A stretch of DNA of 64,000 nt. It comes from a virus. The notes under the pieces are model-generated. The model did no database searches. It saw only the letters and a list, made by a program, of their open reading frames with translations, and was not told the origin of the DNA. Position numbers and translations under genes: made by a program. The DNA is taken from positions 45,291 to 109,290 of the IMG/VR virus record IMGVR_UViG_3300020159_002019. One strand, 5' to 3'. This document shows, one piece after another, positions 17,374 through 52,251 of this stretch. Every line of letters starts with the position of its first letter. Position 1 is the stretch's first letter.

Positions 17374-19611
17374 ATGGCTACAGGTGGAGATCCTAAAGAA
17401 AGTTTAAATATATATAGGGAAATTAATGATTTAGTTACCCAAATCAACGCTAATATTGAAAGAACTAACTCATTTCAAAGTGCATTACCTGAAGAAATTA
17501 AAAAACAAAAAGAGTTATTAGAAAGGTTAAATGATTTAAAAAGAATTGAAAATGAATTATTAAATGAGGAATATGATTTAAGACAAAAAACAAGAAAATT
17601 AACATTTGATGGGTTAAAAGAGAATATTAAAGCAGGTGAAGCTTATCGTAAAATACAAAAAGAAAACAGTAACTTATACCGTTCAATAAATGACTTACAA
17701 AAAATAGCAGACAAAGCTGAAGGTGAAAGAAAGAAAAATTTAGAAGAAATAATCAAATTAAAAAAACAAGAGTATGCTGAAAATCAAGCGGCTGCTGATA
17801 GTGTTGGTAGGTCCGTAATTGGTGGTAAGGCAATGGCTTCACTTATAGGTAGAATGGTTCCGGTTGCTGGGGTACTTGGTGGTATATTTTCAGAAATTAA
17901 AGATTTCTTCATTAATTATTACGATAAATTAGATAAAGCGGCTAGAACATTGTCCGTTGATGTTGGTATGACATCAGAACAGATGATGAATTTAAGACGC
18001 CAAGCCGCATTAACTGCTGTTCATACACAAGCAATGGGTGTTCATATTGCTGATATGTTGGCGGGTCAGAAAGCTTATAACGATGCTTTAGGTAGGAGTG
18101 TTGTATTATCAAGCAAGATGATGGCTGATATGACCGACATTGCTCTCGGGACTGATTTAGGTGCTGATGGTGCGGGTAGAATGGCAGCTTCTTTTGAAGC
18201 CTTTGGTTATAATATGACTGATGTTAAAGATTTAGTTGAAACAACTTTCATCACCAATCAAAAACTTGGGTTAAACTCATCTAAAGTATTAAAAAATATT
18301 GAAGGTAGTTTAAAAACGGCTCAAAAATATAGTTTCAAGGATGGGGCTAAAAACTTAGCTCAAATGGCTCAAACCGCAACGTCAGTTAAAATGAGTATGG
18401 AATCCGTATTTGGTTTATCTGAAAAGTTATTTGAGTTGGAAGGTGCTGTTGAATTATCTGCTCAATTACAAGTATTAGGTGGTAGTTTTGCATCTTTAGG
18501 AGATCCAATGCAGTTGATATATCAAGCAAGAAATGATATGGAAGGATTACAAAAATCCTTAATTGAAGCAACTAAAGGTGTGGCTATGTTTGATAAAGCA
18601 ACAGGTGAATTTAAAATACCTTCAGCCGAATTACATAGATTGAGAAAAGTTGCTGAAGCAACAGGTATATCTATTGATGAAATGACTGAAAGTGCTTTAG
18701 CATTGGCAAGACAAGAAAAGGCTTTAAGTCAAGTGAAAAATTTATTTGAATTCGATAAAGAACAGCAAGAATCAATTAAAAACTTAGCTCAATTAAATAA
18801 AGGGACTGGGAAGTTTGAAATTTTAGTTGGGGACAATATGGAATTATTGGAAAATTTAAGTCCTAGTAGTTTAAAGAAAGCTATTGGTGAGCAAAATAGA
18901 TTGGCAGATGCCGCAACTCAAAGATTAACATTCTTTGATAAGATGAAAAATTTATTTGAAATTTTAAAGGCTGGATTTGCACCAATAATGGATAAATTTA
19001 TTGCTGTTTTAGATAGAACCGATTTTGCTGAAAATTTAACTAAGGCTATGGAAACTGTTGGAAATGTAATTGGTAATATGATTGAAGGTGGTGGTTTAGA
19101 TAGTTTTCTAAAAAGTTTAATTGATGGTGTTAAAACTTTAGGTGATTTTATAGCTGGCGCTTTTAGTCCTACTAGGAACAAAACTTTAGGTGATGTATTA
19201 AGTAGTTTAGCTGATGTAATAGCCGGTGTTTTTACGGTTGCATATAATAAAGTGGCTACAAAAAGTTGGCTTTTACCTGATTTAGATAAGGGTGAAACTA
19301 CTATTGCGGAATATGCTAAAATAAATAATATAAAAATACCTGGTTATGCTAATGGCGGAGTTGTTCAAGGACCACCTGGTGTGGATAATGTTTTAGCTAG
19401 ATTGACACCAGGTGAATTAGTTGTACCTAAAAATAAAGTCGCTAATGGTTTAAATGCTAACGTAAATATTAATGGTACTTTAAAATTAGATTTAGGGATG
19501 GGTGTTACCGCTGATATGAGAAATGATTTGGCTAGTAGTCCTGATTTTAGATATGCTGTTTTACAACTAGTTTCAAATAATATGACTGAATTAATGAATG
19601 GTACTGTATAA
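17374..19611 (+). CDS. Tail tape measure protein
   Basis: Long alpha-helical Ala/Leu-rich protein; C-terminal YANGGVV...DNVLARLTPGELVV motif; tail-module context. Confidence 0.75.
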   Translation: MATGGDPKESLNIYREINDLVTQINANIERTNSFQSALPEEIKKQKELLERLNDLKRIENELLNEEYDLRQKTRKLTFDGLKENIKAGEAYRKIQKENSNLYRSINDLQKIADKAEGERKKNLEEIIKLKKQEYAENQAAADSVGRSVIGGKAMASLIGRMVPVAGVLGGIFSEIKDFFINYYDKLDKAARTLSVDVGMTSEQMMNLRRQAALTAVHTQAMGVHIADMLAGQKAYNDALGRSVVLSSKMMADMTDIALGTDLGADGAGRMAASFEAFGYNMTDVKDLVETTFITNQKLGLNSSKVLKNIEGSLKTAQKYSFKDGAKNLAQMAQTATSVKMSMESVFGLSEKLFELEGAVELSAQLQVLGGSFASLGDPMQLIYQARNDMEGLQKSLIEATKGVAMFDKATGEFKIPSAELHRLRKVAEATGISIDEMTESALALARQEKALSQVKNLFEFDKEQQESIKNLAQLNKGTGKFEILVGDNMELLENLSPSSLKKAIGEQNRLADAATQRLTFFDKMKNLFEILKAGFAPIMDKFIAVLDRTDFAENLTKAMETVGNVIGNMIEGGGLDSFLKSLIDGVKTLGDFIAGAFSPTRNKTLGDVLSSLADVIAGVFTVAYNKVATKSWLLPDLDKGETTIAEYAKINNIKIPGYANGGVVQGPPGVDNVLARLTPGELVVPKNKVANGLNANVNINGTLKLDLGMGVTADMRNDLASSPDFRYAVLQLVSNNMTELMNGTV

Positions 19612-32291: not shown

Positions 32292-32322
32292 TTTGACAAT
32301 TAAAAAAAAAGTAGTATCTTTG
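32292..32322 (+). promoter_or_regulatory. Bacteroidota-type primary-sigma promoter for tRNA operon 1
   Basis: TTTG-N19-TATCTTTG; a second copy (TTTG-N19-TACCTTTG) at 32203-32233. Confidence 0.75.
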
Positions 32323-32368
32323 TATCACAAATAAGAAAAACATACTATTTATTAGTAAGAAAATATAT

Positions 32369-32441
32369 CGTGGAGTAGTAGCAGTGGTAGCTCGCAAGGC
32401 TCATAACCTTGAGGTCGGTGGTTCGAATCCATCCTCCGCAA
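32369..32441 (+). tRNA. tRNA-fMet (CAT), initiator
   Basis: Cloverleaf, caagg-ctcataa-ccttg, C1:A72 mismatch. Confidence 0.9.
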
Positions 32442-32479
32442 CAATTTAAAAAAAGTAAAACAATTAAAAAAAAAAGATT

Positions 32480-32557
32480 ATGACAACAATTATTAACATA
32501 TTTGAATTTAACGTGATTGAGGATAGAAGCCTCGGTTTGGGATATCTTTGTGTCTAA
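32480..32557 (+). CDS. Leader peptide 1 (MTTIINIFEFNVIEDRSLGLGYLCV), putative attenuator peptide
   Basis: Ile/Phe/Glu/Asp-rich; contains GGTTTGGG complementary to the terminator 5' arm. Confidence 0.7.
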   Translation: MTTIINIFEFNVIEDRSLGLGYLCV

Positions 32558-32584
32558 TAATGTGTAGTTAGAATGAATTAAAAG

Positions 32585-32615
32585 AAACCCAAACCTAATA
32601 AGTTTGGGTTTTTTT
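32585..32615 (+). terminator. Attenuator terminator 1
   Basis: aaacccaaac-ctaataa-gtttgggttt plus T-tract, directly before tRNA-Asp. Confidence 0.8.
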
Positions 32616-32640
32616 GTTTTATATTGTTATTTGAAAATAC

Positions 32641-32716
32641 GGTTCATAGGTCAAATGGTTAAGATATCTCCCTGTCACGGAGTATGGAGCGGGTTCGATT
32701 CCCGTATGAACCGCCA
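32641..32716 (+). tRNA. tRNA-Asp (GTC)
   Basis: ctcc-ctgtcac-ggag; GGTTCGATT; encoded CCA. Confidence 0.9.
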
Positions 32717-32722
32717 AAATAG

Positions 32723-32799
32723 GGTATCAGGGGCTGCTGGGTGTGGCTACTTGACTGTCACTCAAGAAAAACAGGTGGGTTCGAATCCCATTGGTACCG
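32723..32799 (+). tRNA. tRNA-Asp (GTC), second divergent copy
   Basis: cttga-ctgtcac-tcaag; GGTTCGAATCC. Confidence 0.8.
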
Positions 32800-32810
32800 C
32801 AAAAATAAAT

Positions 32811-32884
32811 GTTCCGTTGGACAAATTGGTTAAGTCGTTTCCCTTTCAAGGAAAAGATTGCGGGTTCAAATCCCGTACGGAATA
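32811..32884 (+). tRNA. tRNA-Glu (TTC)
   Basis: tttcc-ctttcaa-ggaaa. Confidence 0.9.
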
Positions 32885-32891
32885 CAAAAAT

Positions 32892-32964
32892 GGGTTTATA
32901 GTGAAATTGGTGATCACGCATCCCTGATAAGGATGTATTATAGGTTCAAATCCTATTAGACCTA
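32892..32964 (+). tRNA. tRNA-Ile (GAT)
   Basis: catcc-ctgataa-ggatg. Confidence 0.85.
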
Positions 32965-32970
32965 CAATAT

Positions 32971-33043
32971 GGTGCAGTGGCAGATAAGGTTATTGCGGCG
33001 GACTGAAAATCCGTAGGAGTCGGATCGTTACCGACCTGCACCA
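32971..33043 (+). tRNA. tRNA-Phe (GAA)
   Basis: gcgga-ctgaaaa-tccgt; variant T-loop. Confidence 0.85.
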
Positions 33044-33052
33044 CAATAATAT

Positions 33053-33126
33053 ACTACCATAGCTCAATTGGTGAGAGCAGGATGCTTATACCATCAAGGT
33101 TGTCGGTTCAAATCCGGTTGGTAGTA
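33053..33126 (+). tRNA. tRNA-Ile (TAT)
   Basis: gatg-cttatac-catc; canonical D and T arms. Confidence 0.8.
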
Positions 33127-33131
33127 CAAAT

Positions 33132-33202
33132 GGGATAAAAGCACATAAGGATGTGCAGACCCTAAACAGGGTAAGGATTGGGTTCGAATCCCAGATATTC
33201 CA
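33132..33202 (+). tRNA. tRNA-like element with shortened anticodon loop (undetermined)
   Basis: D stem gcac/gtgc and T arm GGTTCGAATCC present; accct-aaac-agggt gives only a 4-6 nt loop. Confidence 0.55.
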
Positions 33203-33220
33203 CAAAAAAATTAAAAAAAG

Positions 33221-33251
33221 TTTGGAAATAATAAAAAAAGGAGTATCTTTG
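33221..33251 (+). promoter_or_regulatory. Bacteroidota-type promoter (near-leaderless mRNA)
   Basis: TTTG-N19-TATCTTTG, 4 nt before ATG. Confidence 0.7.
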
Positions 33252-33255
33252 TAGT

Positions 33256-34113
33256 ATGGCAAAAATAGAAACATTAAAAGCAAAATTCCCTAATATAACC
33301 GAACAAACATTTATTCGTTTATTTGAGGGTGACAAGACATCTACTAAAAAGTATGCTGAATTTTTACTTTCCGCTTGGAATAGAAAAGGGACAAATTATG
33401 GTGGTTTAAGGGGTGTTGATGACTATATTAAATTGGTTGAGAATTTTGAGAAATTAACCCCTTATATTGATAATAAGGATATATACTCTTATGGAGATAT
33501 TCAATCAATAGTTGGTGTTGTTAAAATAGCTGAAGCCGAAAAAAATGAAAAATCTTTTGATAAAGATGAACACATTTCAGTTATTGAAGAAACTGAAGAT
33601 TATATCTTTTTGATACCTAAAACACACGTTGGTTCATTAAAATATGGTTCTAATACTAAATGGTGCACAGCGGCATCAACAAGTCCTGGAACTTTTAAAT
33701 CATATATTGATAGAGGTTTTTTAGCTTATTTAGTTGATAAGAAAAATAAAAAGACGAATAATCAAAATAAATTGGCTTTTTATTTTACAAATAAAGAAAA
33801 CTTACTTACACAAGTAATCCAAATCTTTAATCAATTAGATTCACTTGTAAATGAAAACCAAGTAATACAGAGTGGTTGGGATATTATGTTATTGAGTAAT
33901 CTTATAACTAAATTGAGGGTTTTCTTATTTGAGTTTAAGGAGAAAGAAAAAGTTAGGGTTGAAGTATCTAAAACAATTCAACAATTGAATCAAATCAATT
34001 ACGATAACTTCTTTAATGCTTTAAATACGTTAAAGATAAATCCTGAGAATGTTGAAGAATTGAAAAACGCTTTAGGGTTAGTTAAAACTTCAATGAAAAA
34101 AATCAAAGTATGA
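33256..34113 (+). CDS. Hypothetical protein, YG-x-x-(T/S)KWC repeat family
   Basis: GSLKYGSNTKWCTA motif shared with three other ORFs. Confidence 0.6.
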   Translation: MAKIETLKAKFPNITEQTFIRLFEGDKTSTKKYAEFLLSAWNRKGTNYGGLRGVDDYIKLVENFEKLTPYIDNKDIYSYGDIQSIVGVVKIAEAEKNEKSFDKDEHISVIEETEDYIFLIPKTHVGSLKYGSNTKWCTAASTSPGTFKSYIDRGFLAYLVDKKNKKTNNQNKLAFYFTNKENLLTQVIQIFNQLDSLVNENQVIQSGWDIMLLSNLITKLRVFLFEFKEKEKVRVEVSKTIQQLNQINYDNFFNALNTLKINPENVEELKNALGLVKTSMKKIKV

Positions 34114-34460
34114 GGAGTGTAAAACAAATCAAAAAGTTAAGATATACTAATGATTGGGTGTCAAATGTTGATGATTCAAATATAACTTATCGTCTTTTTA
34201 CTTATAATGGTTTAACTTGGAATGTTATTTTAACTAACCGACAAGAATTAGGTGGTTGGACAATAAGGTTATGTAATAATGATGGTGATGAATTATACAT
34301 TTTTAATTCAGGTGTGAATAGAATGTCCATATCAATAAATGACGATTTAATTTACGAATTAGATGGTTGGTATTATGAAAATATAACTGAATTGAAGAAT
34401 AGGTTAGAAAACGATTTAATCGTATTATTAAGGAAATATGAGGAGTATATCAAAAATTAG
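34110..34460 (+). CDS. Hypothetical protein
   Basis: 116-aa ORF, ATGA-coupled. Confidence 0.5.
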   Translation: MRSVKQIKKLRYTNDWVSNVDDSNITYRLFTYNGLTWNVILTNRQELGGWTIRLCNNDGDELYIFNSGVNRMSISINDDLIYELDGWYYENITELKNRLENDLIVLLRKYEEYIKN

Positions 34461-34770
34461 GGTAAGTGTAAAACAAGATTTTCAAGAATGGTTGGAAAAA
34501 ACTACCATTAGTAGATGGATGCCAAGACATAGAATAATATGTAATGATGGGTTTTCTATGTCAGTTCAGGGTGGTGAGTTTACATATTCAAACCCAAGAC
34601 AATTTGGTAGTAGTTTTACTGAAATGGAGATTGGGTTTCCTTCTGAGTATGAAGAATTGATTAGTAGTTATTCTGACTCTAATGAATATACTCAAACTGT
34701 TTATCCATATGTCCCAGTAAGTTTAATTATTGAAGTGATTGAAAAACACGGAGGAATAAAAAAAGATTAG
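34438..34770 (+). CDS. Hypothetical phage protein
   Basis: CNDGFSMSVQ...EIGFPS...VYPYVP..IEKHGG. Confidence 0.6.
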   Translation: MRSISKIRVSVKQDFQEWLEKTTISRWMPRHRIICNDGFSMSVQGGEFTYSNPRQFGSSFTEMEIGFPSEYEELISSYSDSNEYTQTVYPYVPVSLIIEVIEKHGGIKKD

Positions 34771-34787
34771 AAAAAAATAAAAAAAGA

Positions 34788-34818
34788 TTTGACAAGTTAA
34801 AAAAAAATGTTATCTTTG
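34788..34818 (+). promoter_or_regulatory. Bacteroidota-type promoter for tRNA operon 2
   Basis: TTTG-N19-TATCTTTG. Confidence 0.75.
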
Positions 34819-34897
34819 TATAACAAATGGGATATGAAAATATTTTTTAGATTTCCTTGACAAAAACAAAAAAACAAACTATTTATAAATTAAAGAT

Positions 34898-35008
34898 ATG
34901 AAAAACACGAATAAAAATATGACTATGGTTGTGAAAGCAACGGCAAAAGGTGGGAATAGAAATACCACACTTGGTTTAGGGCGTGTTATGTCTTTAATGG
35001 ATAGATAA
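34898..35008 (+). CDS. Leader peptide 2 (MKNTNKNMTMVVKATAKGGNRNTTLGLGRVMSLMDR), putative attenuator peptide
   Basis: First 24 residues are all K/N/T/M/V/A/G/R; contains GGTTTAGGG antiterminator. Confidence 0.75.
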   Translation: MKNTNKNMTMVVKATAKGGNRNTTLGLGRVMSLMDR

Positions 35009-35032
35009 TACAATAATATAAAAAGATATATT

Positions 35033-35069
35033 AAAAACCCTGAACCATAAAAAAGTTCAGGGTTTTTTT
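35033..35069 (+). terminator. Attenuator terminator 2
   Basis: aaaaaccctgaac-cataaaaaa-gttcagggttttttt, directly before tRNA-Thr. Confidence 0.8.
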
Positions 35070-35077
35070 ATTTATAA

Positions 35078-35149
35078 TCCAGATTAGTTTAATTGGGAAA
35101 ACACGTCTCTTGTAAAGATGAAAAGTTGGTTCGAATCCGACATTTGGAT
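35078..35149 (+). tRNA. tRNA-Thr (TGT)
   Basis: cgtct-cttgtaa-agatg; GGTTCGAATCC. Confidence 0.85.
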
Positions 35150-35255
35150 CAAAGAAAATAGTAAAAAATTAATTAAAAATATGAAACGAAAACAGTAGGG
35201 TGTATGATCAATTAGGAATAGGTTGCATACACTAAAAATTAAAAAAAATGTATAT

Positions 35256-35343
35256 GCACCTATGGCTTAATTGGTAGAGCAACCGGCTTTTAACCGGTGG
35301 GGTAGACGAAAGTCCGTTGAAGGTTCGAGTCCTTCTGGGTGCA
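35256..35343 (+). tRNA. tRNA-Lys (TTT) with long variable arm
   Basis: accgg-cttttaa-ccggt; extra gac-gaaa-gtc hairpin. Confidence 0.8.
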
Positions 35344-35349
35344 CAATTT

Positions 35350-35422
35350 ACTTTCGTAGCTTAATTGGTAAAGAAACTAACTCTTAATTAGTGTGATGTG
35401 AGTTCGAGTCTCACTGGAAGTA
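35350..35422 (+). tRNA. tRNA-Lys (CTT)
   Basis: actaa-ctcttaa-ttagt. Confidence 0.8.
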
Positions 35423-35449
35423 CTAAATGTTATTTGAAATATTATAAAT

Positions 35450-35522
35450 TGGGATGTAACTCAGAGGCTAGAGTGTTTGCCTGTTAAGCAAAAAGTCGAG
35501 ATATCGTAATTCTCCATCCCAG
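35450..35522 (+). tRNA. tRNA-Asn (GTT)
   Basis: tttgc-ctgttaa-gcaaa; atypical T-loop. Confidence 0.75.
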
Positions 35523-35583
35523 CAAAAATTGAAAGATAAACGTATGAAACAAAGGAATGTAGTGGTTTATTAAGTAAATATAT

Positions 35584-35655
35584 GGCTCTATCGTTTAACG
35601 CATAAGACATTTCTCTTCTAAAGAAAGAATAGGGGTTGGATTCCCTTTAGAGCCA
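35584..35655 (+). tRNA. tRNA-Arg (TCT)
   Basis: tttct-cttctaa-agaaa. Confidence 0.8.
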
Positions 35656-35659
35656 CAGC

Positions 35660-35687
35660 AATCCAAGTTCGATTCTTGGTGGGAGTA
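35660..35687 (+). pseudogene. Orphan tRNA 3' half (T arm + acceptor strand)
   Basis: ccaag-ttcgatt-cttgg-tgggagta with no matching 5' half. Confidence 0.55.
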
Positions 35688-35696
35688 CAAAAAAAT

Positions 35697-35767
35697 ACCT
35701 TCTTAGTTAAATGGGAGAATATCTGTTTTACATACAGAAGATAACTGTTCGATTCAGTTAGGGGGTA
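35697..35767 (+). tRNA. tRNA-Val (TAC)
   Basis: tctgt-tttacat-acaga. Confidence 0.8.
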
Positions 35768-35819
35768 CAAAAAAAGATTTGATTTTTTAAAAAAAATTAT
35801 TATCTTTAAAAAACAATAT

Positions 35820-35892
35820 GGGGTTATGGTATAGTTGGCGAACACAGTAGCTTTGCAAGCTTCAGTCCCGAGTTCAAATCTCGGTAGCTCCA
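35820..35892 (+). tRNA. tRNA-Ala (TGC)
   Basis: agc-tttgcaa-gct; G3:U70 pair. Confidence 0.85.
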
Positions 35893-35895
35893 CAA

Positions 35896-35965
35896 TGTTT
35901 CACTTAGAATAAAAACAAACGCTTAATAGCAACAAACTCTTAATTTGTCAATTATTAGTGAAACA
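35896..35965 (+). repeat. CACTTAGAATAA stem element, copy 1
   Basis: Closing stem tgtttcact/agtgaaaca. Confidence 0.6.
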
Positions 35966-35968
35966 AAT

Positions 35969-36039
35969 GTCGATATAGTTAAATGGGATAACACCCCTCT
36001 CATCAAGGGAAGTTATTGGTTCGAATCCAGTTATCGATA
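35969..36039 (+). tRNA. tRNA-Met (CAT), elongator (Ile2 not excluded)
   Basis: ccct-ctcatca-aggg; GGTTCGAATCC. Confidence 0.75.
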
Positions 36040-36050
36040 CCCTGAAATAA

Positions 36051-36127
36051 TATTTCACTTAGAATAAAAAACTATTTGAATTTATCCTCCAATGGAGGGT
36101 GTATTTAATCCAATTAATAGTGAAATA
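36051..36127 (+). repeat. CACTTAGAATAA stem element, copy 2
   Basis: Closing stem tatttcact/agtgaaata; internal cctcc/ggagg hairpin. Confidence 0.6.
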
Positions 36128-36130
36128 AAT

Positions 36131-36203
36131 GCGGGTGTAGCTCAATTGGTAGAGCGCGACCTTGCCAAGGTCGAGGCTGTGGGATCGTACCCCATCACCC
36201 GCT
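36131..36203 (+). tRNA. tRNA-Gly (GCC)
   Basis: cgacc-ttgccaa-ggtcg. Confidence 0.9.
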
Positions 36204-36206
36204 CAT

Positions 36207-36412
36207 TGAGTAAGAGGTACTCAGTAGTCTTTAATCCAAGACTCATTTAACAATGGATTCGCTTAAATCGGACAGCGAAAATGCCGGTTCTTAGGAATAA
36301 GGAGCGAAGCACACCTCCCCTTCGTAGTGTGACTATTTTTAATGGGGATGCCCTTCAGGTTTTTGGAAAGAAGAAAACCGAAATGACTACTCACCTAAAT
36401 CTCAAGGTGGGG
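36207..36412 (+). ncRNA. Candidate structured ncRNA between the two tRNA-Gly genes
   Basis: GC-richer than genome; several hairpins, a long-range stem and two possible pseudoknots. Confidence 0.45.
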
Positions 36413-36419
36413 TAAACAA

Positions 36420-36491
36420 GCGAGTATCGTATAATGGCTATTATACCACGCTTCCAACGTGGGGATGTGATTTCGATTATCACTACTCGCT
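36420..36491 (+). tRNA. tRNA-Gly (TCC)
   Basis: ccacg-cttccaa-cgtgg. Confidence 0.85.
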
Positions 36492-36520
36492 CCGGACGTT
36501 TTAGAAATCAGTAATATTTT

Positions 36521-36552
36521 TTTGGTATTACTGATTTTTTTTATTACCTTTG
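36521..36552 (+). promoter_or_regulatory. Bacteroidota-type promoter
   Basis: TTTG-N20-TACCTTTG. Confidence 0.65.
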
Positions 36553-36568
36553 TAGAAATAATAAAATT

Positions 36569-37018
36569 ATGACACTTAAAGAACAAATTCAAAAAGACTT
36601 CATCACGGCTATGAAAAATAAAGATGAATGGACTAAATCCGCTCTAAGTGGGTTAAAATCAAAGATTACTGAAGCTGAAAAAGTTAATGGAACAGAATTA
36701 TCAGACGCTGATATTCTTAAACTAATTAATAAAGGTATTAAACAAAGGGAAGAATCTGCTACTATATATAGTGAAGCAGGTCGTCCGGAATTAGCTGCGA
36801 AAGAATTACTTGAACTTAATGTTTTAATGGATTATATGCCAGCTCAAATGACTGATGAGGAAATTGAAACGGCTGTAAGGGAAATTATTGTTGGATTACC
36901 TACAATGACAAACGCAAATGCCTTGTCAGGAAAAACTATGGGTGAATTCAATAAAAAGTATCAAGGAATGGCTGATTCTAAAAGAGTTTCAGAAATTATA
37001 AAAAAAGTTGTATCATAA
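36569..37018 (+). CDS. GatB/YqeY domain protein
   Basis: MTLKEQIQKDFITAMKNKD...KQREESATIYSEAGRPELA.KE..EL.VL..YMPAQM. Confidence 0.9.
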   Translation: MTLKEQIQKDFITAMKNKDEWTKSALSGLKSKITEAEKVNGTELSDADILKLINKGIKQREESATIYSEAGRPELAAKELLELNVLMDYMPAQMTDEEIETAVREIIVGLPTMTNANALSGKTMGEFNKKYQGMADSKRVSEIIKKVVS

Positions 37019-37062
37019 TTTGACTTTCAATAAACAATAAACTATAATTAAAAAACAAAAAT

Positions 37063-37173
37063 GGGGGGTAATTTTTTAGTGGATTGAAAATACCACTTAG
37101 AATAACTCTAAACTATATTGGTAAAAGTTTGACTAATAATCAAATATAGAAGGTTCGAACCCTTCACCCCCCG
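37063..37173 (+). ncRNA. tRNA-like RNA (AAT loop) with ~40-nt insertion carrying CACTTAGAATAA copy 3
   Basis: ggggggt/acccccc acceptor, tttga-ctaataa-tcaaa arm, gaagg-ttcgaac-ccttc T arm. Confidence 0.6.
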
Positions 37174-37203
37174 CAATTATTAACAATATAAAACATAAAG
37201 TAT

Positions 37204-39042
37204 ATGACAGAATTAGTAAAAGAAAAAATGAAGTTATCTAACACATTAGATACATTACAATTTTTAAGAACCGCTAAAGGTGCTTCAGATGAAAAAATTC
37301 ATTTGGCTTTAGATAAAGCCTATGCTGAAACAACATCTAATGGAGTTGAGGAAATGTTATATAGAATTATGTTTCATATTGGAGATATTTCAAGAAAGCA
37401 TAATATCTTTAAAGAATTTGAAATCAACTCAGAAGTGGGTGGGGCTCAAGAAAGAAAGATATTTAGATCTTGTGTAAGATGGATGCAAAAGAACACCCCA
37501 GAGTTCTTGCATAACAACTTAAAGTTAGTAGTTGAATATACTTCATACGAAACTTTAATGTATTACCAAGTAAGCACAAACAGATATTTGGGTAATGTTA
37601 TGGGTGTTGAAAAACTATTCATTGACAACCAATATTTGTTCCCTTTCTTAAAGTCTGAGATTGAATCAGGTGTAAACTTGAACTTAATCGCAAGACACTT
37701 ACCTAAATATGCTACAGGTAAGCAAAGAACAACTAAAAAGACTTTAGTTGGTAAAAGGGGAAGAACTGAATTCAGTTGGACATTACCGAAAGGTAAGACT
37801 TGGGTTAAAATCAATGGAAACCTTGTAAATGGTGATAAAATCACGGTTAAGCATGGTGATGTTGCTGAATACCCAAGAGAAAAGAAATCTGAGTCTTTAA
37901 CAAGACAAAGTTTCTTAAACAAGTGGATTAAGGATTTCTGTGATTATATGAAATGGACAATCGCTGATTACAAAGCATTTAAGGGTAAGCAGAATACTGC
38001 TGAACAAAAAATGTCAAGTGGTTCAGTAATGTCTATGACAGAAGATCAATTTAATGGTTTCTTGGATTCTTTGACTGCGGGACAAAGAAAAAGGGTTGTA
38101 AAATCATTGGGTAATCCTAAATGGGGACAGCTAACTAAATGGTATAAGGCTTGGGAAGATGACCAATCTAACTTAGCTGAAAAAATTAGAAAAGCTACCA
38201 CACCTGCTGAAAAAGCCGCTTTGATGAAAGATTTCAAAGTTAAAACAACAGGGGATCAAACAATTGATTTGTTGGCTGAAATGCTTGGTAAGGGTTTAAA
38301 TGCTCAACAAGTAAATAACAACTATCAATCAATGATTGAGAGAATGAACATTAAACATTCAGTATTTCCAATTATTGACGGTTCGGGTTCTATGGATAGT
38401 ACTTTTGACCATAACGGTGTAGGAATATCTAACAGACAAGTAGCATACGCAATGGCAATTGCATTTACTACAATGAATCCAAACCCAAGATTTAGAAATA
38501 CTTATGGTTGGTTCTCAAACGACTTTAAGGTTTTTGGTAGGTCTGAGTATGGTGATACCTATATATCTATGTTTAAGAATGTGGATAAGTATGTAAGTCA
38601 TACAAAGACTTTTACTGAGAATTACAGATTACTTATGGAGACAGATCCAAAAGAAATTACATCTACAAATATGTTTGCTTCGGTAGAATATTTTGTAAAT
38701 CTTGTGAAAACAGGAAGATGTACTATGGAAGAATTACCTGAAACATTACTTTATCTTACAGATAATGAGTATAATTCAGGTAAATCACCAAAAGAAGCGG
38801 TTACTTTAGCCAATTCAATTGGATGGAGACCAAAGTTAATTTTTTGGGGTATTACCACAATGACTCATTCTATTAAGGAAGAGTTAAAATATACTCCGAA
38901 TGGTTTATTCATCGGTGGTTTCAACGAAAGTTGTTTATCACAAATCTTGGATGGAATCTCAAAAGATTCAATAAATCCAGAAGATGAATTGTGGGCTATT
39001 TATAACGATATTCGTTATAGTGTAATTAAAGTAGGTGAATAA
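37204..39042 (+). CDS. DUF2828/TROVE-like protein with C-terminal vWA domain
   Basis: GGAQERKIFR N-terminal motif; IIDGSGSM MIDAS; STNM; LLYLTDNEYN; PKLIFW. Confidence 0.65.
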   Translation: MTELVKEKMKLSNTLDTLQFLRTAKGASDEKIHLALDKAYAETTSNGVEEMLYRIMFHIGDISRKHNIFKEFEINSEVGGAQERKIFRSCVRWMQKNTPEFLHNNLKLVVEYTSYETLMYYQVSTNRYLGNVMGVEKLFIDNQYLFPFLKSEIESGVNLNLIARHLPKYATGKQRTTKKTLVGKRGRTEFSWTLPKGKTWVKINGNLVNGDKITVKHGDVAEYPREKKSESLTRQSFLNKWIKDFCDYMKWTIADYKAFKGKQNTAEQKMSSGSVMSMTEDQFNGFLDSLTAGQRKRVVKSLGNPKWGQLTKWYKAWEDDQSNLAEKIRKATTPAEKAALMKDFKVKTTGDQTIDLLAEMLGKGLNAQQVNNNYQSMIERMNIKHSVFPIIDGSGSMDSTFDHNGVGISNRQVAYAMAIAFTTMNPNPRFRNTYGWFSNDFKVFGRSEYGDTYISMFKNVDKYVSHTKTFTENYRLLMETDPKEITSTNMFASVEYFVNLVKTGRCTMEELPETLLYLTDNEYNSGKSPKEAVTLANSIGWRPKLIFWGITTMTHSIKEELKYTPNGLFIGGFNESCLSQILDGISKDSINPEDELWAIYNDIRYSVIKVGE

Positions 39043-39053
39043 CCTACTTTTTT
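39028..39053. terminator. Bidirectional terminator
   Basis: aaagtaggt/acctacttt between convergent genes. Confidence 0.65.
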
Positions 39054-39271
39054 TATGCCTTTATTTTAACCACAACCTCACCTTCATTATTAGTGGTTAG
39101 ATAATATTCTTTTTTGTTTGTAAATCCATATTTTTTAGATATGTTTGATTCTATCCTTTTTTTGGTTGATGGTGTGTTAGCAAATGTAATATGTGGTTGA
39201 ACATATTCATCTTTGAATTGTTCCATTTTATTTACCGTTTCTTTAATAATTCTCTTAATTAAATTTTTCAT
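39053..39271 (-). CDS. Small hypothetical protein
   Basis: MKNLIKRIIKE N-terminus; TATTTAT motif upstream on minus strand. Confidence 0.55.
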   Translation of the reverse strand: MKNLIKRIIKETVNKMEQFKDEYVQPHITFANTPSTKKRIESNISKKYGFTNKKEYYLTTNNEGEVVVKIKA

Positions 39272-39338
39272 ATAAATAAATATTTGGTTTTATGAAAACT
39301 ATTATTTATATTTGTATTGTAATTAAAAAATAAAATAT

Positions 39339-40004
39339 ATGTATAATAACAAAACAGATTTTAACAAATTCGCAACATCGCATATGGGTATATCGTCTTT
39401 ATACCTCGATGATCTTCAATCGTCAATGACACCTCACATCTTAGAAGAAAGACCGACAAGAGCAAATCTTATGTCAGTATTTGATAGATTGATGCAAGAT
39501 AGGATTATTTGGGTTGCCGGTGCGGTTGATGAGGGTATGTCACAAGTTATTCAAGCGCAATTGATTTACTTGTCAAACTCAGACCCTAAGAAAGAAATTA
39601 CGATGCACATTGACACTCCTGGTGGTTCAGTAAAGGCTGGATTATCAATCGTGGATGTAATGGATTATGTTAAACCTGACATTAGAACAATCAATACAGG
39701 TATGGCGGCATCAATGGGTTCAGTATTGTTAGGCGCTGGAACCAAAGGAAAAAGAATGTCTTTAAGATTTTCACAAACAATGCTACACCAATCTTCAGGT
39801 GGTGTGAGAGGAAATATTCAGGATGCTAGGATAACAATGATTGAATGGGAAAAAATAAATGATTTGTTATTTAATTTGTTAGGTGGGTATTGTGGTAAGG
39901 ATGCTATCCAAGTAAAAGAAGATGCTTCTCGTGATTTATGGTTAAGTTCTGAAGAAGCGTTGGCTTATGGGATAATTGACGAAATAATCAAACCAAAAAA
40001 ATAA
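39339..40004 (+). CDS. clpP: ATP-dependent Clp protease proteolytic subunit
   Basis: DTPGGSV, GMAASMGSVLL (catalytic Ser), MLHQ, RDLWLSSEEALAYGIID. Confidence 0.95.
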   Translation: MYNNKTDFNKFATSHMGISSLYLDDLQSSMTPHILEERPTRANLMSVFDRLMQDRIIWVAGAVDEGMSQVIQAQLIYLSNSDPKKEITMHIDTPGGSVKAGLSIVDVMDYVKPDIRTINTGMAASMGSVLLGAGTKGKRMSLRFSQTMLHQSSGGVRGNIQDARITMIEWEKINDLLFNLLGGYCGKDAIQVKEDASRDLWLSSEEALAYGIIDEIIKPKK

Positions 40005-40015
40005 TTAAAAAAAAG

Positions 40016-40046
40016 TTTGACAATTAGAAAAAAAATATTATCTTTG
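40016..40046 (+). promoter_or_regulatory. Bacteroidota-type promoter for tRNA operon 3
   Basis: TTTG-N19-TATCTTTG. Confidence 0.75.
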
Positions 40047-40121
40047 TATTATAAATGGGATGTGAAAAATATTTTTCACATTTCCATAACAAAAACAAAA
40101 AAACAAACTATTTAATATAAA

Positions 40122-40256
40122 ATGAAAACATTAATTAACATATCATTATCGTCATTGTATCTATTACAGTCGCTATGCCAAAGTTGTGTTTCGGTATTAC
40201 CGTTACATCAGTATTGGTTAGTGCTAGGATTTAGTGCGGTGGGTATGTTAAGTTGA
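40122..40256 (+). CDS. Leader peptide 3 (MKTLINISLSSLYLLQSLCQSCVSVLPLHQYWLVLGFSAVGMLS), putative attenuator peptide
   Basis: 24 of residues 8-33 are S/L/Y/Q/C/P/H/W; contains GGATTTAG antiterminator. Confidence 0.75.
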   Translation: MKTLINISLSSLYLLQSLCQSCVSVLPLHQYWLVLGFSAVGMLS

Positions 40257-40278
40257 TAAGACAATAATATACCTTATT

Positions 40279-40320
40279 AAACCCCCTAAATCCGTATAAA
40301 TGAGATTTAGGGGGTTTTTT
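40279..40320 (+). terminator. Attenuator terminator 3
   Basis: aaaccccctaaatc...gatttagggggtttttt, before tRNA-Pro. Confidence 0.8.
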
Positions 40321-40354
40321 ATTTTAGTTATTTGACATATTGTATTAGAAATAT

Positions 40355-40427
40355 CAGGGTGTATATCAATTGGGAGATTACTCCATTTGGATTGGAGAGG
40401 TTGTAGGTTCGAGTCCTATCACCCTGA
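40355..40427 (+). tRNA. tRNA-Pro (TGG)
   Basis: ctcca-tttggat-tggag. Confidence 0.85.
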
Positions 40428-40434
40428 CAAATAT

Positions 40435-40505
40435 TCCCCTTTCGTCTAACGGCAGGACAGATGGTTTTGAGCTATCGAATCGAGGTTCGAATCCTTGAGG
40501 GGGAA
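40435..40505 (+). tRNA. tRNA-Gln (TTG)
   Basis: gatgg-ttttgag-ctatc; U1:A72. Confidence 0.85.
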
Positions 40506-40557
40506 CCGGTTTGGGTTTTACACTTTTAAACTTACGAGATAAGGAAAAAGTGAAATT

Positions 40558-40628
40558 GGGATGATGCCGAGAGTGGTCAGACGGTCTGTAAAACCGAACT
40601 GCATAGTGTTTGAGTCACTTCCATCCCA
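40558..40628 (+). tRNA. tRNA-Tyr (GTA), atypical with short variable region
   Basis: cggt-ctgtaaa-accg; degenerate D and T arms. Confidence 0.65.
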
Positions 40629-40638
40629 CAAAATAAAC

Positions 40639-40712
40639 GTAAGTGTAGTGAACAATGGCTAACACGTTCGGTTCCAACCCGAAAGATGTGGGTTCGACCC
40701 CTACCACTTGCG
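40639..40712 (+). tRNA. tRNA-Trp (CCA)
   Basis: ttcgg-ttccaac-ccgaa; G73. Confidence 0.85.
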
Positions 40713-40719
40713 CAAATAA

Positions 40720-40814
40720 GGAGAGGTGCTAGAGATGGATTATTGGGCTAGTCTTGAAAACTAGAGATCGTCAGTGATGGGGATCCGTGGGTTCGAATCC
40801 CACTCTCTCCTCCA
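40720..40814 (+). tRNA. tRNA-Ser (TGA)
   Basis: ctagt-cttgaaa-actag; long variable arm; CCA. Confidence 0.9.
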
Positions 40815-40819
40815 AATAT

Positions 40820-40898
40820 GGGTTTGTTGGTGTTAATTGGATGAGCATTTACGATTGTGGCTCGTAAGGTGAGGGGTTCGAATCCCCCATAAACCCCA
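40820..40898 (+). tRNA. tRNA-His (GTG)
   Basis: tacga-ttgtggc-tcgta; G-1:C73. Confidence 0.85.
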
Positions 40899-40978
40899 AA
40901 AGTAAGGAATTAGGTTATTATACGTAGGCTCCGAGTGTAATAACTGAAATTTAGATCCTTATGAACTTCGGTCCGCAG

Positions 40979-41066
40979 GGAGAATTGACAGAGTGGTAAT
41001 GTATCGGTTTGCTAATCCGTAGTCTATGTAAAAGTAGCGGGGGCTCGAATCCCTCATTCTCCGCCA
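40979..41066 (+). tRNA. tRNA-Ser (GCT)
   Basis: ttgctaa loop; long variable arm; G73 then CCA. Confidence 0.8.
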
Positions 41067-41075
41067 AAAATAAAT

Positions 41076-41164
41076 GCTTCTGTGGCGAAATTGGTAGCAC
41101 GCGATGGACTTAAAATCCATTGGGAAATAACAGTACCGTGTCGGTTCGATTCCGACCAGAAGTA
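41076..41164 (+). tRNA. tRNA-Leu (TAA)
   Basis: atgga-cttaaaa-tccat; long variable arm. Confidence 0.9.
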
Positions 41165-41171
41165 CAAACAT

Positions 41172-41257
41172 ACCCCAATGTTGGAATGTAGACAACCTAG
41201 TTTTAGAAACTAGTGTGAAGTAATAGTAGCGTCTGGGTTCAAATCCCAGTTGGGGTA
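41172..41257 (+). tRNA. tRNA-Leu (TAG)
   Basis: ctagt-tttagaa-actag; long variable arm. Confidence 0.85.
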
Positions 41258-41263
41258 CAAAAT

Positions 41264-41351
41264 GGGAATGTGGTGTGAGTGGTTGAAACCGGGGGTCTGC
41301 AAAACCCCAAAAACGAAAGTTTTCACGTCAGTTCGAATCTGATCATTCCCT
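41264..41351 (+). tRNA. tRNA-Cys (GCA) with long variable arm
   Basis: ggggt-ctgcaaa-acccc; aaaac-gaaa-gtttt extra arm; U73. Confidence 0.8.
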
Positions 41352-41360
41352 CAATTACAT

Positions 41361-41433
41361 GACCCCATAGTTCAATGGATTAGAATACTTGAATACGGAT
41401 CAGGAGATGAGAGTTCAAATCTTTCTGGGGTTA
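41361..41433 (+). tRNA. tRNA-Arg (ACG)
   Basis: cttga-atacgga-tcagg. Confidence 0.8.
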
Positions 41434-41440
41434 CAAAAAG

Positions 41441-41466
41441 AAAACCATTTTTATATGGTTTTTTTT
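41441..41466 (+). terminator. Terminator ending tRNA operon 3
   Basis: aaaaccat/atggtttt plus T-tract. Confidence 0.6.
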
Positions 41467-44944: not shown

Positions 44945-45468
44945 AAGCCACGAAATTCCGTAATATCCACAGGAACACATAAGATTTTATTATAAAAAGT
45001 TTTATACCCACCACGAGTTTTTTCGGTTTCAGCTTCAATCCTATTAGGATCTACAACTTTATAATATTTAACATTTGTTTCACTATCCGCATACCCAACA
45101 AAATCACCCAATTCTATATCACATTTCTTTTCTTCCAATTGTTTTTTATAAACATAAAATGTAAGATTGCCATAATCCTCATAGAATAATGTACCATTAG
45201 GGTTATATGATTTTGGAGCATTATCCTCAATACTTACCAATACTTTCAGTTCAATTGGGGGTTTAAATCTTATTTCATCTTGAAGAGTTTCTCCGTAAAT
45301 ATCGTCATAATTTGTTTTTTGTCTGTCTATTTGATATAAGACAACTGTAAAGTTATTATCATCTTCTAGGTATTCGCGGCCCATTTCTATGTCAAGCGAA
45401 AAATCTACATCGTCATACCATTTTGATAATCTGGTAATAGGTATTTTTTTGTTATTTAATGGATTCAT
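44941..45468 (-). CDS. Putative neck/head-closure protein (gp14-like)
   Basis: DDIYGE...FKPPIEL...GNLTFYVY...IELGDF pattern; TATTTAT upstream. Confidence 0.5.
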   Translation of the reverse strand: MNPLNNKKIPITRLSKWYDDVDFSLDIEMGREYLEDDNNFTVVLYQIDRQKTNYDDIYGETLQDEIRFKPPIELKVLVSIEDNAPKSYNPNGTLFYEDYGNLTFYVYKKQLEEKKCDIELGDFVGYADSETNVKYYKVVDPNRIEAETEKTRGGYKTFYNKILCVPVDITEFRGF

Positions 45469-49326: not shown

Positions 49327-50486
49327 ATAAAGGTGCTTATAGAATGAGATGGCCTCACGTTCATCTACAAGAAATGTTTCAGGATGAAATACATATAGAT
49401 ATTATTGATATATCTGACTTTACAGATATTACAATATATAAAGATTATAATATTATATTCTGTCATAGAAGTTTAACTCCTGATATTGGAGCAACTCCTG
49501 AAATATATAAAAGATTAAAACAACAAAACCCTAATCAAATTATTATTGGTGATATTGACGATCATTGGTTGGTTGATCCATCACACGGATTATATCAAAT
49601 CATCAAGTTCCAACAAATAGATAAAAAGATTGTTGAGAATTTAAAAATATTTGATTATGTGACAACAACCAATTTATATTTCGCTTCTAAGATAAGGCAA
49701 TATAATAAGAATGTGGTAATATTCCCAAATGCTATTAATCCAAGAGATAGACAATTTATCCCTAATAGGGAAGAAAATGATAAGATTGGTATTGGTTATT
49801 TAGGTGGTTCATCACATTTAAAAGATTTACAATTATTGCATGGTGTGACGAATGTTCTATCAGGCGATAAGTCCGTTATGGATAAGATACAATTGGTTTT
49901 ATGTGGTTTTGATTTAAGGGGGACAAAAACAACCATAAATGCTCAAACTGGGGAACAAATGCAAGAACCGATTAAACCTCACGAAACTGTTTGGTATGAT
50001 TACGAAAAAATTGTAACGGATAATTATAATATTATTTCACCACAATATAAGAACTATTTAGATAGATTTACTCAAGGATCATTTGATGATAAGAATGAAC
50101 CGTATAGAAGAAGATGGACATTACCAATCAACAAATATGCTACAAACTATAACTACTTTGATATATCATTGGCTCCATTAGTAGAAACTGAGTTTAATAG
50201 GGTTAAATCGTCATTGAAGGTAATGGAAGCAGGTTTCCATAAGAAAGCTTTAATTGCGTCACATATTGAACCATATTCAGAAGATATTATTGATGGTAAG
50301 AATGGGTTTTTAATTGAACAAAAAAGAAGTCATAAAGATTGGCATAAAACAATTAAGAAATTGGTTAATAACCCTGAACAAATAAAAGATATGGGTGAAG
50401 CGTTATATGAAACCGTAAAGGAAAAATATAACTTAGATTTTGTATCAAAAAATAGGATGGAATTTTATAGGTCAGTAATAAAATGA
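49323..50486 (+). CDS. Glycosyltransferase (GT-B fold), main body
   Basis: GAYRMRWPH, DIDD, GYLGGSSHLKDL, DISLAPL...FNRVKSSLKVMEAG. Confidence 0.85.
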   Translation: MNKGAYRMRWPHVHLQEMFQDEIHIDIIDISDFTDITIYKDYNIIFCHRSLTPDIGATPEIYKRLKQQNPNQIIIGDIDDHWLVDPSHGLYQIIKFQQIDKKIVENLKIFDYVTTTNLYFASKIRQYNKNVVIFPNAINPRDRQFIPNREENDKIGIGYLGGSSHLKDLQLLHGVTNVLSGDKSVMDKIQLVLCGFDLRGTKTTINAQTGEQMQEPIKPHETVWYDYEKIVTDNYNIISPQYKNYLDRFTQGSFDDKNEPYRRRWTLPINKYATNYNYFDISLAPLVETEFNRVKSSLKVMEAGFHKKALIASHIEPYSEDIIDGKNGFLIEQKRSHKDWHKTIKKLVNNPEQIKDMGEALYETVKEKYNLDFVSKNRMEFYRSVIK

Positions 50487-51234: not shown

Positions 51235-52251
51235 ATGACAAAAACATTAGTGATAGATGGTAATTATCTATTAAAAAGGGGAACTAAAGGCGCTAAAAAT
51301 ATTATCTTTAATGAAGATAAGATAGGTGGGTTATATCAGTTCATCATTACAATAAAGATGATGATGAATAAGATATTCCCTGATAAGGTAATTGTATTTT
51401 GGGATGGACCCAATTCCAAAGATTATAGAAGAACATTTTACCCTGAATACAAAATACAACGAGAGGAGTTAAACAATAAGATTGATAAAGATTATCAGTT
51501 TAACATTCAAAAAATTAAATCCCAATATTATTGTGAAGAACTATATTTAAGACAATTTGAAGATGAAGGATCTGAGGCTGATGATAGTATTGCTTATTAT
51601 TGTTTAAATACTCCAAATGAGTATAAGTATGTATATACAAATGACAGGGATATATTACAGACAATTAGTGAAAATACTGAAGTTTATTTAGCGGACAAAA
51701 GAGATTTTGTAAATAAAAAAAATTGGAGTAAGTATTTAGATTATCATTATAAAAATATATGTTTAGTAAAAGTTTTAACAGGTTGTAATTCGGATAACAT
51801 AGCAGGTGTTTATGGTATGGGTGAAGCAACATTGTTTAAGTTATTTCCTGAGTTAGTAAAAGAAGAAAAAACATTAGAATGGGTATTTGAAAAAGCAAAC
51901 CAATTATTACCTGAATCGAGAGGTAGGGATGCGTCAGTATTAAGAAATCTCATTAACGGAAAATCAAAACACGGAGTAATGGGTGAAAACCTATATATTA
52001 CAAATCAAAAGATTATTGATTTAAGCCAACCTTTGCTAACTGATAACGTAAAAGAGAGGATTGATGATGAATTAATAAATGGTGTATTAAACCCTGAAGG
52101 TAGGGATTATAAGGTATTAATGAAACAAATGATTAATGATGGTATCTATTCATATATGCCGAAATCAGATTCTGGGTTTATTGATTTTTTTAAGCCATTT
52201 TATATTATTATGGAAAAGGAAAAGAAATTATATAAGAAAGCAATATTATGA
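51235..52251 (+). CDS. 5'-3' exonuclease / flap endonuclease (PolI N-terminal / T4 RNase H-like)
   Basis: LVIDGN, FWDG, YPEYK, EADDSIA, TNDRDILQ, SDNIAGVYGMGEAT. Confidence 0.9.
   Translation: MTKTLVIDGNYLLKRGTKGAKNIIFNEDKIGGLYQFIITIKMMMNKIFPDKVIVFWDGPNSKDYRRTFYPEYKIQREELNNKIDKDYQFNIQKIKSQYYCEELYLRQFEDEGSEADDSIAYYCLNTPNEYKYVYTNDRDILQTISENTEVYLADKRDFVNKKNWSKYLDYHYKNICLVKVLTGCNSDNIAGVYGMGEATLFKLFPELVKEEKTLEWVFEKANQLLPESRGRDASVLRNLINGKSKHGVMGENLYITNQKIIDLSQPLLTDNVKERIDDELINGVLNPEGRDYKVLMKQMINDGIYSYMPKSDSGFIDFFKPFYIIMEKEKKLYKKAIL

Follow-up and report, generated by a model that had tools for sequence, protein, structure and literature searches.

Short open reading frames whose codons match the downstream tRNAs precede three phage tRNA arrays and probably act as leader-peptide attenuators

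Leader-peptide attenuators are known from enterobacteria: that of ilvGMEDA senses isoleucine, valine and leucine, that of thr senses threonine and isoleucine, and others are those of the trp, his, leu and phe leaders. The pheST attenuator of E. coli, with its pheM leader, controls a synthetase and senses one amino acid, and T-box riboswitches, which need no translation, bind uncharged tRNA directly via the T-box motif and a specifier codon. As for the tRNA genes carried by phages, their purpose and use are debated, the proposals being that they match codon usage, make up for the decay of host tRNAs or allow escape from tRNA-cleaving defence. The nearest published case of a regulated tRNA array is the trn operon of Anabaena sp. 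PCC 7120, a silent extra array that is induced under translational stress (PMC8421152) and controlled through promoter direct repeats and the RHH repressor TrcR (PMC10272220); the words leader peptide, attenuation and terminator are absent from both papers. Here we describe a stretch of viral DNA of 64,000 nucleotides (hereafter the window; positions 45,291 to 109,290 of the IMG/VR record IMGVR_UViG_3300020159_002019), in which each of three tRNA arrays lies behind a short open reading frame (ORF) and an intrinsic terminator. We consider it likely that each of these cassettes is a ribosome-mediated (leader-peptide) attenuator, which opens its tRNA array when its own codons are decoded slowly.

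One and the same cassette occurs in three copies, consisting of a promoter, a short ORF, a strong intrinsic terminator and a tRNA array, and the alignment of the three copies revealed that they are paralogues. A previous reading of the window, made from the letters alone (the sequence-only reading), had proposed this threefold layout, and every element that it named was found in its place. The promoter, TTGACA-N16-TATCTTTG, has no other exact copy in the 109-kb record; its TTTG and TAnnTTTG elements are spaced by 19 nt, and such a spacing (-33/-7) is typical of Bacteroidota promoters. The leader ORFs start with ATG, have A-rich upstream regions without a Shine-Dalgarno (SD) sequence, lie directly 5' of the arrays and are conserved in the relatives of the phage. 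Inside each of them there is a copy of 8–9 nt of the 3' arm of its own terminator (region 2). The sequence-only reading had also claimed that this segment is complementary to the 5' arm of the same terminator and that the three segments co-vary with their terminators; both claims hold in the three units, with one G-U pair in unit 2, and the region 2 sequences differ between units in step with the respective terminators. The elements are as follows:

32293..32322, + strand, promoter of unit 1, TTGACA-N16-TATCTTTG (exact-pattern scan)
32480..32557, + strand, leader ORF 1, 25 codons; codons 2–18 include four I, two F, two E and one D
32534..32541, + strand, region 2 of unit 1, GGTTTGGG, complementary to the 5' arm of terminator 1
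32581..32615, + strand, terminator 1, 14-bp stem and T run, hairpin of -14.9 kcal/mol
32641..33127, + strand, array 1 (ARAGORN, Rfam): Asp, Asp, Glu, Ile(GAT), Phe, Ile(TAT)
34789..34818, + strand, promoter of unit 2 (exact-pattern scan)
34898..35008, + strand, leader ORF 2, 36 codons; codons 2–24 are drawn from K/N/T/M/V/A/G/R(AGA)
34973..34981, + strand, region 2 of unit 2, GGTTTAGGG, complementary to the 5' arm of terminator 2
35033..35067, + strand, terminator 2, hairpin and T run, -16.2 kcal/mol
35078..36493, + strand, array 2 (ARAGORN, Rfam): Thr, two Lys, Asn, Arg(TCT), Val, Ala, Met, two Gly
40017..40046, + strand, promoter of unit 3 (exact-pattern scan)
40122..40256, + strand, leader ORF 3, 44 codons; 26 of 34 sensing codons are from S/L/Y/Q/C/P/H/W
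40227..40234, + strand, region 2 of unit 3, GGATTTAG, complementary to the 5' arm of terminator 3
40279..40318, + strand, terminator 3, hairpin and T run, -22.7 kcal/mol
40355..41434, + strand, array 3: Pro, Gln, (Tyr candidate, 40558–40629), Trp, Ser, His, Ser, two Leu, Cys, Arg(ACG)

The terminators end 25 nt (unit 1), 10 nt (unit 2) and 33–36 nt (unit 3) before the first tRNA, and none of these three spacers contains a TAnnTTTG box; thus, the arrays should be reachable only by read-through. According to ARAGORN and Rfam, the three blocks comprise 27 tRNA genes, all on the + strand. A 28th, tRNA-Tyr(GTA) (40558–40629), was seen only at a lowered ARAGORN threshold and was missed by Rfam; if this candidate is included, the three blocks together cover all 20 amino acids.

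The sequence-only reading had further claimed that the leader codons match the downstream tRNA set. We counted the codons from codon 2 up to region 2 and assigned each of them to the array carrying its amino acid, with arginine split into AGR and CGN. The resulting table (leaders 1 to 3 against arrays 1 to 3: 9, 6, 2; 0, 23, 1; 2, 6, 26) has a chi-square P of 3e-13, with 58 of 75 codons falling in the leader's own array. None of 200,000 permutations attains this diagonal, and when the leaders are assigned to the arrays in the five wrong ways, a shuffling that had been suggested as a check, the diagonal falls to 8–32. Moreover, no window of 24 or 33 codons taken from the 37 long ORFs of the phage itself attains the values of units 2 and 3. 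The enrichment vanishes when the leader DNA is read in either other frame; therefore, the signal is that of the reading frame and not of base composition.

A second check concerned leader/array covariation in related phages, and differently partitioned arrays were indeed found with correspondingly different leaders. A close relative (L004/L005), about 90% identical, has all three units: seven sensing codons of its leader 2 are changed in L005, six of them still within the set, and its leader 3 has gained CGC, a codon that the Arg(ACG) tRNA of array 3 decodes. L114, the third phage of this clade, has a leader 2 whose 21 sensing residues all belong to set 2, about a third of them being different from those of the window, and in its region 2 of unit 2 the G-U pair of the window has become G-C. 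In the three-way alignment of the clade, variation is greatest in the sensing stretch, while the ORF start, region 2 and the terminator are conserved.

The tRNAs are grouped in another way in L021, a distant phage with a complete genome of 317 kb and 37% identity in the neighbouring protein. Its third array lacks Val and Lys, and the leader of this array lacks V and internal K. Two of its leaders, and three classes of arrays recurring in L021 and related loci, are the following:

L021 8523–8428, - strand, leader before Pro-Asn-Asp-Gly-Gly-Thr, rich in exactly those residues
L021 3751–3653, - strand, leader before Glu-Phe-Cys-Trp-Tyr-Met-Gln-Arg(ACG)-His, rich in exactly those residues
recurrent class, Pro-Asn-Asp-Gly-Thr(-Ala)
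recurrent class, Leu(TAA)-Arg(TCT)-Leu(TAG), behind a 22-codon leader rich in L and R
recurrent class, Glu-Val-Phe-Lys-Cys-Trp-Tyr-Met-Gln-Arg(ACG)-His-Ser, whose leader contains all twelve

A scan of viral contigs for the terminator pattern (AACCCTGAA...TTCAGGGTTTTT) retrieved 109 matches in 91 contigs, and 39 of the matches lie less than 150 nt 5' of a tRNA. Leaders were then defined as the longest ATG ORF ending at most 110 nt before a terminator, the latter being defined by RNAfold and lying within 170 nt of a tRNA; this yielded about 30 distinct leaders from several phage clades. The fraction of leader residues belonging to the set of their own array is 0.61, versus 0.38 with the arrays shuffled, and the fraction of array amino acids found in their own leader is 0.95 versus 0.75; in both cases none of 20,000 shuffles reaches the observed value. 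In L115, all 13 amino acids of the array are present in a leader of 32 codons, and 21 of its 23 sensing codons are in the set. At a finer scale the covariation between tRNAs and leaders is partial: alanine is present in all seven leaders preceding arrays with tRNA-Ala and still in three of the six preceding arrays without it. As for arginine, leaders of arrays with Arg(TCT) contain 22 AGA and 3 CGN codons, and those of arrays with Arg(ACG) contain 13 CGN and 3 AGA, all three AGA being codon 2. This match at the level of the isoacceptor is the strongest single argument, and no peptide function explains it.

The same layout is found in an isolated phage, the Caulobacter phage phiCbK (JX100813), with units at 49540–49769 and 51341–51502. 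Its gp083, 45 codons long and rich in S, L, P and K, precedes an annotated terminator, behind which lie Pro-Pro-Lys-Lys-Leu-Leu-Leu-Ser-Ser; a 32-codon ORF (51341–51439), with a Y-R-Q-F-V-R-Q-I-Q-V-V stretch, also precedes an annotated terminator, and here a Tyr-like tRNA comes next, before Phe-Val-Ile-Ile-Val-Gln-Gln. A cultured and tractable phage thus carries the layout, which makes it accessible to tests in a standard laboratory host.

These data bear on the idea that the leaders are ordinary micro-protein genes, or chance ORFs before leaky terminators, and that the codon match is a coincidence or reflects shared composition. The ORFs are short, leader 3, being hydrophobic, might be taken for a membrane peptide, and unit 1 taken alone has a P of only 0.013. 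Against this stand the frame-specific joint table, the leader arginine codons tracking the isoacceptor of the array, the drift of the peptide sequence with set membership kept and the matching leaders of the different partitions in other clades, so that this explanation is already strongly disfavoured and seems extremely improbable to us.

Turning to the RNA, the proposed folding of each leader was carried out and mutually exclusive terminator and antiterminator structures exist. The antiterminator, in which region 2 pairs with the 5' arm, and the terminator have calculated energies of -13.6 versus -14.9 kcal/mol in unit 1, -20.8 versus -16.2 in unit 2 and -21.6 versus -22.7 in unit 3, and are thus predicted to be about equally stable. 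The ribosome was modelled by masking 28 nt, and the transcript was folded as it would be before the emergence of the 3' arm of the terminator. When the mask covers the sensing codons, the 5' arm is predicted to pair with region 2, through Asp15 in unit 1, through Tyr31 in unit 3 and at most positions through Arg21 in unit 2; when the mask lies over region 2, the model leaves the 5' arm free, unpaired with region 2. In leader-peptide attenuators, an upstream (1:2) hairpin sequesters region 2 as long as the leader is untranslated. In minimum free energy folds without a ribosome, the antiterminator still forms in units 1 and 3. The leaders folded alone have energies of -15.8, -19.2 and -39.1 kcal/mol (units 1, 2 and 3), with region 2 partly paired. 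Among 34 distinct units of the window and relatives, the 5' arm of the terminator pairs with the 3' part of the leader better than at least 95% of shuffled arms in 24 (median z of -2.8). A comparison of own and cross pairing restricted to the arms (RNAduplex, -9.2 versus -8.4 kcal/mol) is uninformative, because most units share the CCCTGAAC arm.

From this arrangement we infer that the leaders are translated, that stalling opens the arrays and that read-through responds to tRNA supply, according to the following scenario. Transcription would start from the shared type of promoter, and a ribosome would translate the leader, whose sensing codons would be drawn from the amino acids, and largely from the isoacceptors, of the downstream array. 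If all codons are decoded fast, the ribosome would run over region 2, the terminator would form and transcription would end 10–36 nt short of the first tRNA. A stall at any codon within the leader's first two thirds would leave region 2 free to pair with the emerging 5' arm of the terminator, and the RNA polymerase would enter the array. The outcome would be a negative feedback, each of the three tRNA subsets being produced when charged tRNAs of that subset run short.

Synthesis of tRNAs during amino-acid starvation would be futile; the logic might hence be reversed, with stalling favouring termination and tRNAs being made only under healthy translation. Region 2, however, lies downstream of the sensing codons, so that an upstream stall would free it and a run-on ribosome would cover it, and the geometry is that of the trp, his and ilv attenuators; we regard the reversed logic as very improbable indeed.

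The attenuation reading is supported by every computational test that had been proposed for it in the sequence-only reading. Nevertheless, several observations weigh against it. Unit 1 by itself matches its array only modestly (9 of 17 codons, P 0.013), leaders 1 and 3 open with 3–7 codons outside the matching set, leader 3 has no codon for the Arg(ACG) of array 3, and each amino acid is represented by 1–5 scattered codons, without the runs of the his and trp leaders. In the model, the full transcript at equilibrium always favours the terminator; therefore, the decision must be kinetic, as it is also in trp attenuation. The stop codon lies 24 nt (unit 2) and 19 nt (unit 3) beyond region 2, a departure from the classical attenuators, and termination under plenty would therefore need a well-timed passage of the ribosome or hairpins internal to the leader. 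The contigs from RNA libraries cover neither the leaders nor the terminators. Finally, a TAnnTTTG box is present between the terminator and the first tRNA in 20 of 38 distinct units, all 20 from L021-like phages or other contigs of the pattern scan and none from the clade of the window.

The equilibrium folding, in which the terminator is never disfavoured, would also suit a leader that is translated and senses decoding but acts in another way, stalling changing the access of Rho, RNase processing or the stability of the precursor rather than switching a terminator. The Pro-Asn-Asp-Gly-Thr units of the relatives, in which the arm-only duplex with region 2 has just 4–5 bp, fit this alternative as well, and so does a conserved TTCTTTGACATATTGG-like motif just 5' of the first tRNA. 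It does not account for region 2 copying the 3' arm of the terminator in three out of three units and varying in step with it, nor for the pairing of the 5' arm with the leader above shuffled controls in 24 of 34 units, and we find it unlikely. As to the motif itself, it lies at 40330–40345 in the window and is found also in L005, L115, L024, L053, L055, L110 and others; in several clades it is located 15–25 nt 5' of the first tRNA, too near the tRNA to be its -35 box.

The boxes of the 20 units, on the other hand, would be expected if promoters located behind the terminators drove the arrays, the leaders and terminators forming separate short transcripts without any control over them; in some relatives the T run also ends in a TTTG that lies 19 nt upstream of the box. 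Yet no box occurs in the three units of the window or in L005, nor in the L114 spacers read by eye, the spacer of unit 2 has only 10 nt, and the codon match would be left without a reason. This explanation is thus very unlikely. In L021, L105, L111 and other relatives, the T run ends in TTTG, 19 nt before the TATCTTTG box, so that terminator and possible promoter overlap. The box-bearing arrays of the relatives may have a basal promoter of their own besides regulated read-through.

Some further features accompany the cassettes:

32369..32442, + strand, tRNA-Met(CAT), initiator-like, with a C1xA72 mismatch (pairing read from the sequence), between the promoter of unit 1 and leader 1
34829..34857, + strand, 5' hairpin of the unit 2 transcript, absent in L114
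36505..36542, + strand, terminator-like hairpin and T run at the end of array 2 (read from the sequence)
40055..40087, + strand, 5' hairpin of the unit 3 transcript
41441..41466, + strand, weak terminator-like hairpin and T run at the end of array 3 (read from the sequence)

Unit 1 has the initiator-like tRNA where units 2 and 3 have the conserved 5' hairpin. The C1xA72 mismatch is a hallmark of bacterial initiator tRNA; here, it was read by eye, since the automated check of positions 1:72 in CAT tRNAs is unreliable, the ends given by ARAGORN being variable. Its position upstream of leader 1 places outside the gate a tRNA that elongation stalling could not report. In another genome (G006) the initiator-like tRNA and leader 1 are separated by an insertion of 933 nt.

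Other observations concern the arrays. A tRNA-like element (33132–33203) lies directly 3' of array 1, with an Rfam score of 23.8 bits, below the cut-off, and the anticodon AAA in low-threshold ARAGORN. The tRNA-Lys(TTT) (35256–35344) and tRNA-Cys(GCA) (41264–41352) genes, of 89 nt each, are unusually long for class I and possibly carry an insertion or a long extra arm. The spacer between the two tRNA-Gly genes of array 2 (36204–36420; 216 nt) is relatively GC-rich and structured-looking; it contains no tRNA and has no Rfam match, L005 keeps it at about 213 nt, and it may represent an unknown small RNA. In L005, moreover, array 3 carries an insertion of 778 nt (17674–18452) between tRNA-Ser and tRNA-His, and neither Leu(TAA) nor Ile(TAT) is detected there by ARAGORN.

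The window is the final 64 kb of the 109-kb record, whose completeness according to CheckV is 34%, so that the record should be a fragment of a phage of about 300 kb. Its GC content is 30%. SD-like motifs precede just 6 of 49 long ORFs and TAnnTTTG is not enriched window-wide; a Bacteroidota host is therefore suggested rather than established. Lake metagenomes carry the phage DNA (14 runs from six coded studies, each with at least half of its words). In the isolated-phage collection, megablast with the 9.3-kb region retrieved only matches of tRNA size and tblastn with the neighbouring protein of 285 amino acids retrieved none, that is, these searches found no cultured close relative. The genes lying between the arrays encode a YqeY-like protein (36569–37018; Pfam E 5e-38), a ClpP protease (39339–40004; E 3e-57) and, between arrays 2 and 3, a product of 612 amino acids (37204–39042), for which Pfam and PDB sequence searches gave no match. 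Near-identical contigs of this last ORF occur in RNA libraries of four studies, and the RNA-library contigs on the region cover only this gene, together with stray tRNA pieces of other organisms.

As for what would set off the switch, it cannot distinguish the loss of a tRNA from amino-acid starvation. Candidate triggers include host anticodon nucleases, host tRNA decay during infection, late-gene demand and starvation, the link to host anticodon nucleases being a conjecture. In a wider scenario, which we advance tentatively and hold to be possible rather than probable, the cassettes would form a modular homeostat of the tRNA pool, in which three independent codon-reading sensors replace exactly the tRNA subset that is depleted by host anticodon nucleases or through the shut-off of the host by the phage. 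The design would be shared by phage lineages with hosts in different phyla (lake phages that are poor in SD motifs and have promoters of the Bacteroidota type, and the Caulobacter phage phiCbK) and would represent a general, hitherto unreported layer of phage translation control; if this is true, it is either ancient or repeatedly invented.

What is new in the attenuation reading is the application of a textbook mechanism to tRNA genes, for which full-text searches of the literature found no published description of leader-peptide control. If it is correct, the phage gauges how well it can decode and replenishes this capacity one channel at a time, leader-peptide attenuation extends to RNA genes and can serve many amino acids simultaneously, and compact, programmable codon-specific sensors become available to synthetic biology.

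Among the known systems, T-box riboswitches share with the cassettes a terminator/antiterminator switch reporting the state of specific tRNAs; Rfam gave no T-box match on the cassettes, even at E-values up to 1, and of its leader families only Thr_leader, at 27 and 23 bits versus a cut-off of 55, on terminator hairpins. The Anabaena trn operon resembles them in that a supernumerary tRNA array is kept off and turned on when translation is impaired, but its control is at the promoter level, with no codon-specific sensing and no amino-acid channels. The pheST attenuator is likewise a leader-peptide control of a component of the translation apparatus by the supply of charged tRNA, whereas its target is a synthetase, it responds to one amino acid and it is cellular. 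The ilv and thr attenuators have in common with the cassettes a short leader ORF rich in regulatory codons, an intrinsic terminator, several amino acids per leader and an antiterminator made of the 3' part of the leader and the 5' arm of the terminator. Unlike them, the phage cassettes regulate tRNAs instead of biosynthetic enzymes and would sense up to 8–13 amino acids, through 1–5 scattered codons each and no runs; their leader codons follow the isoacceptors of the array, and they are phage-borne, with three parallel channels per genome.

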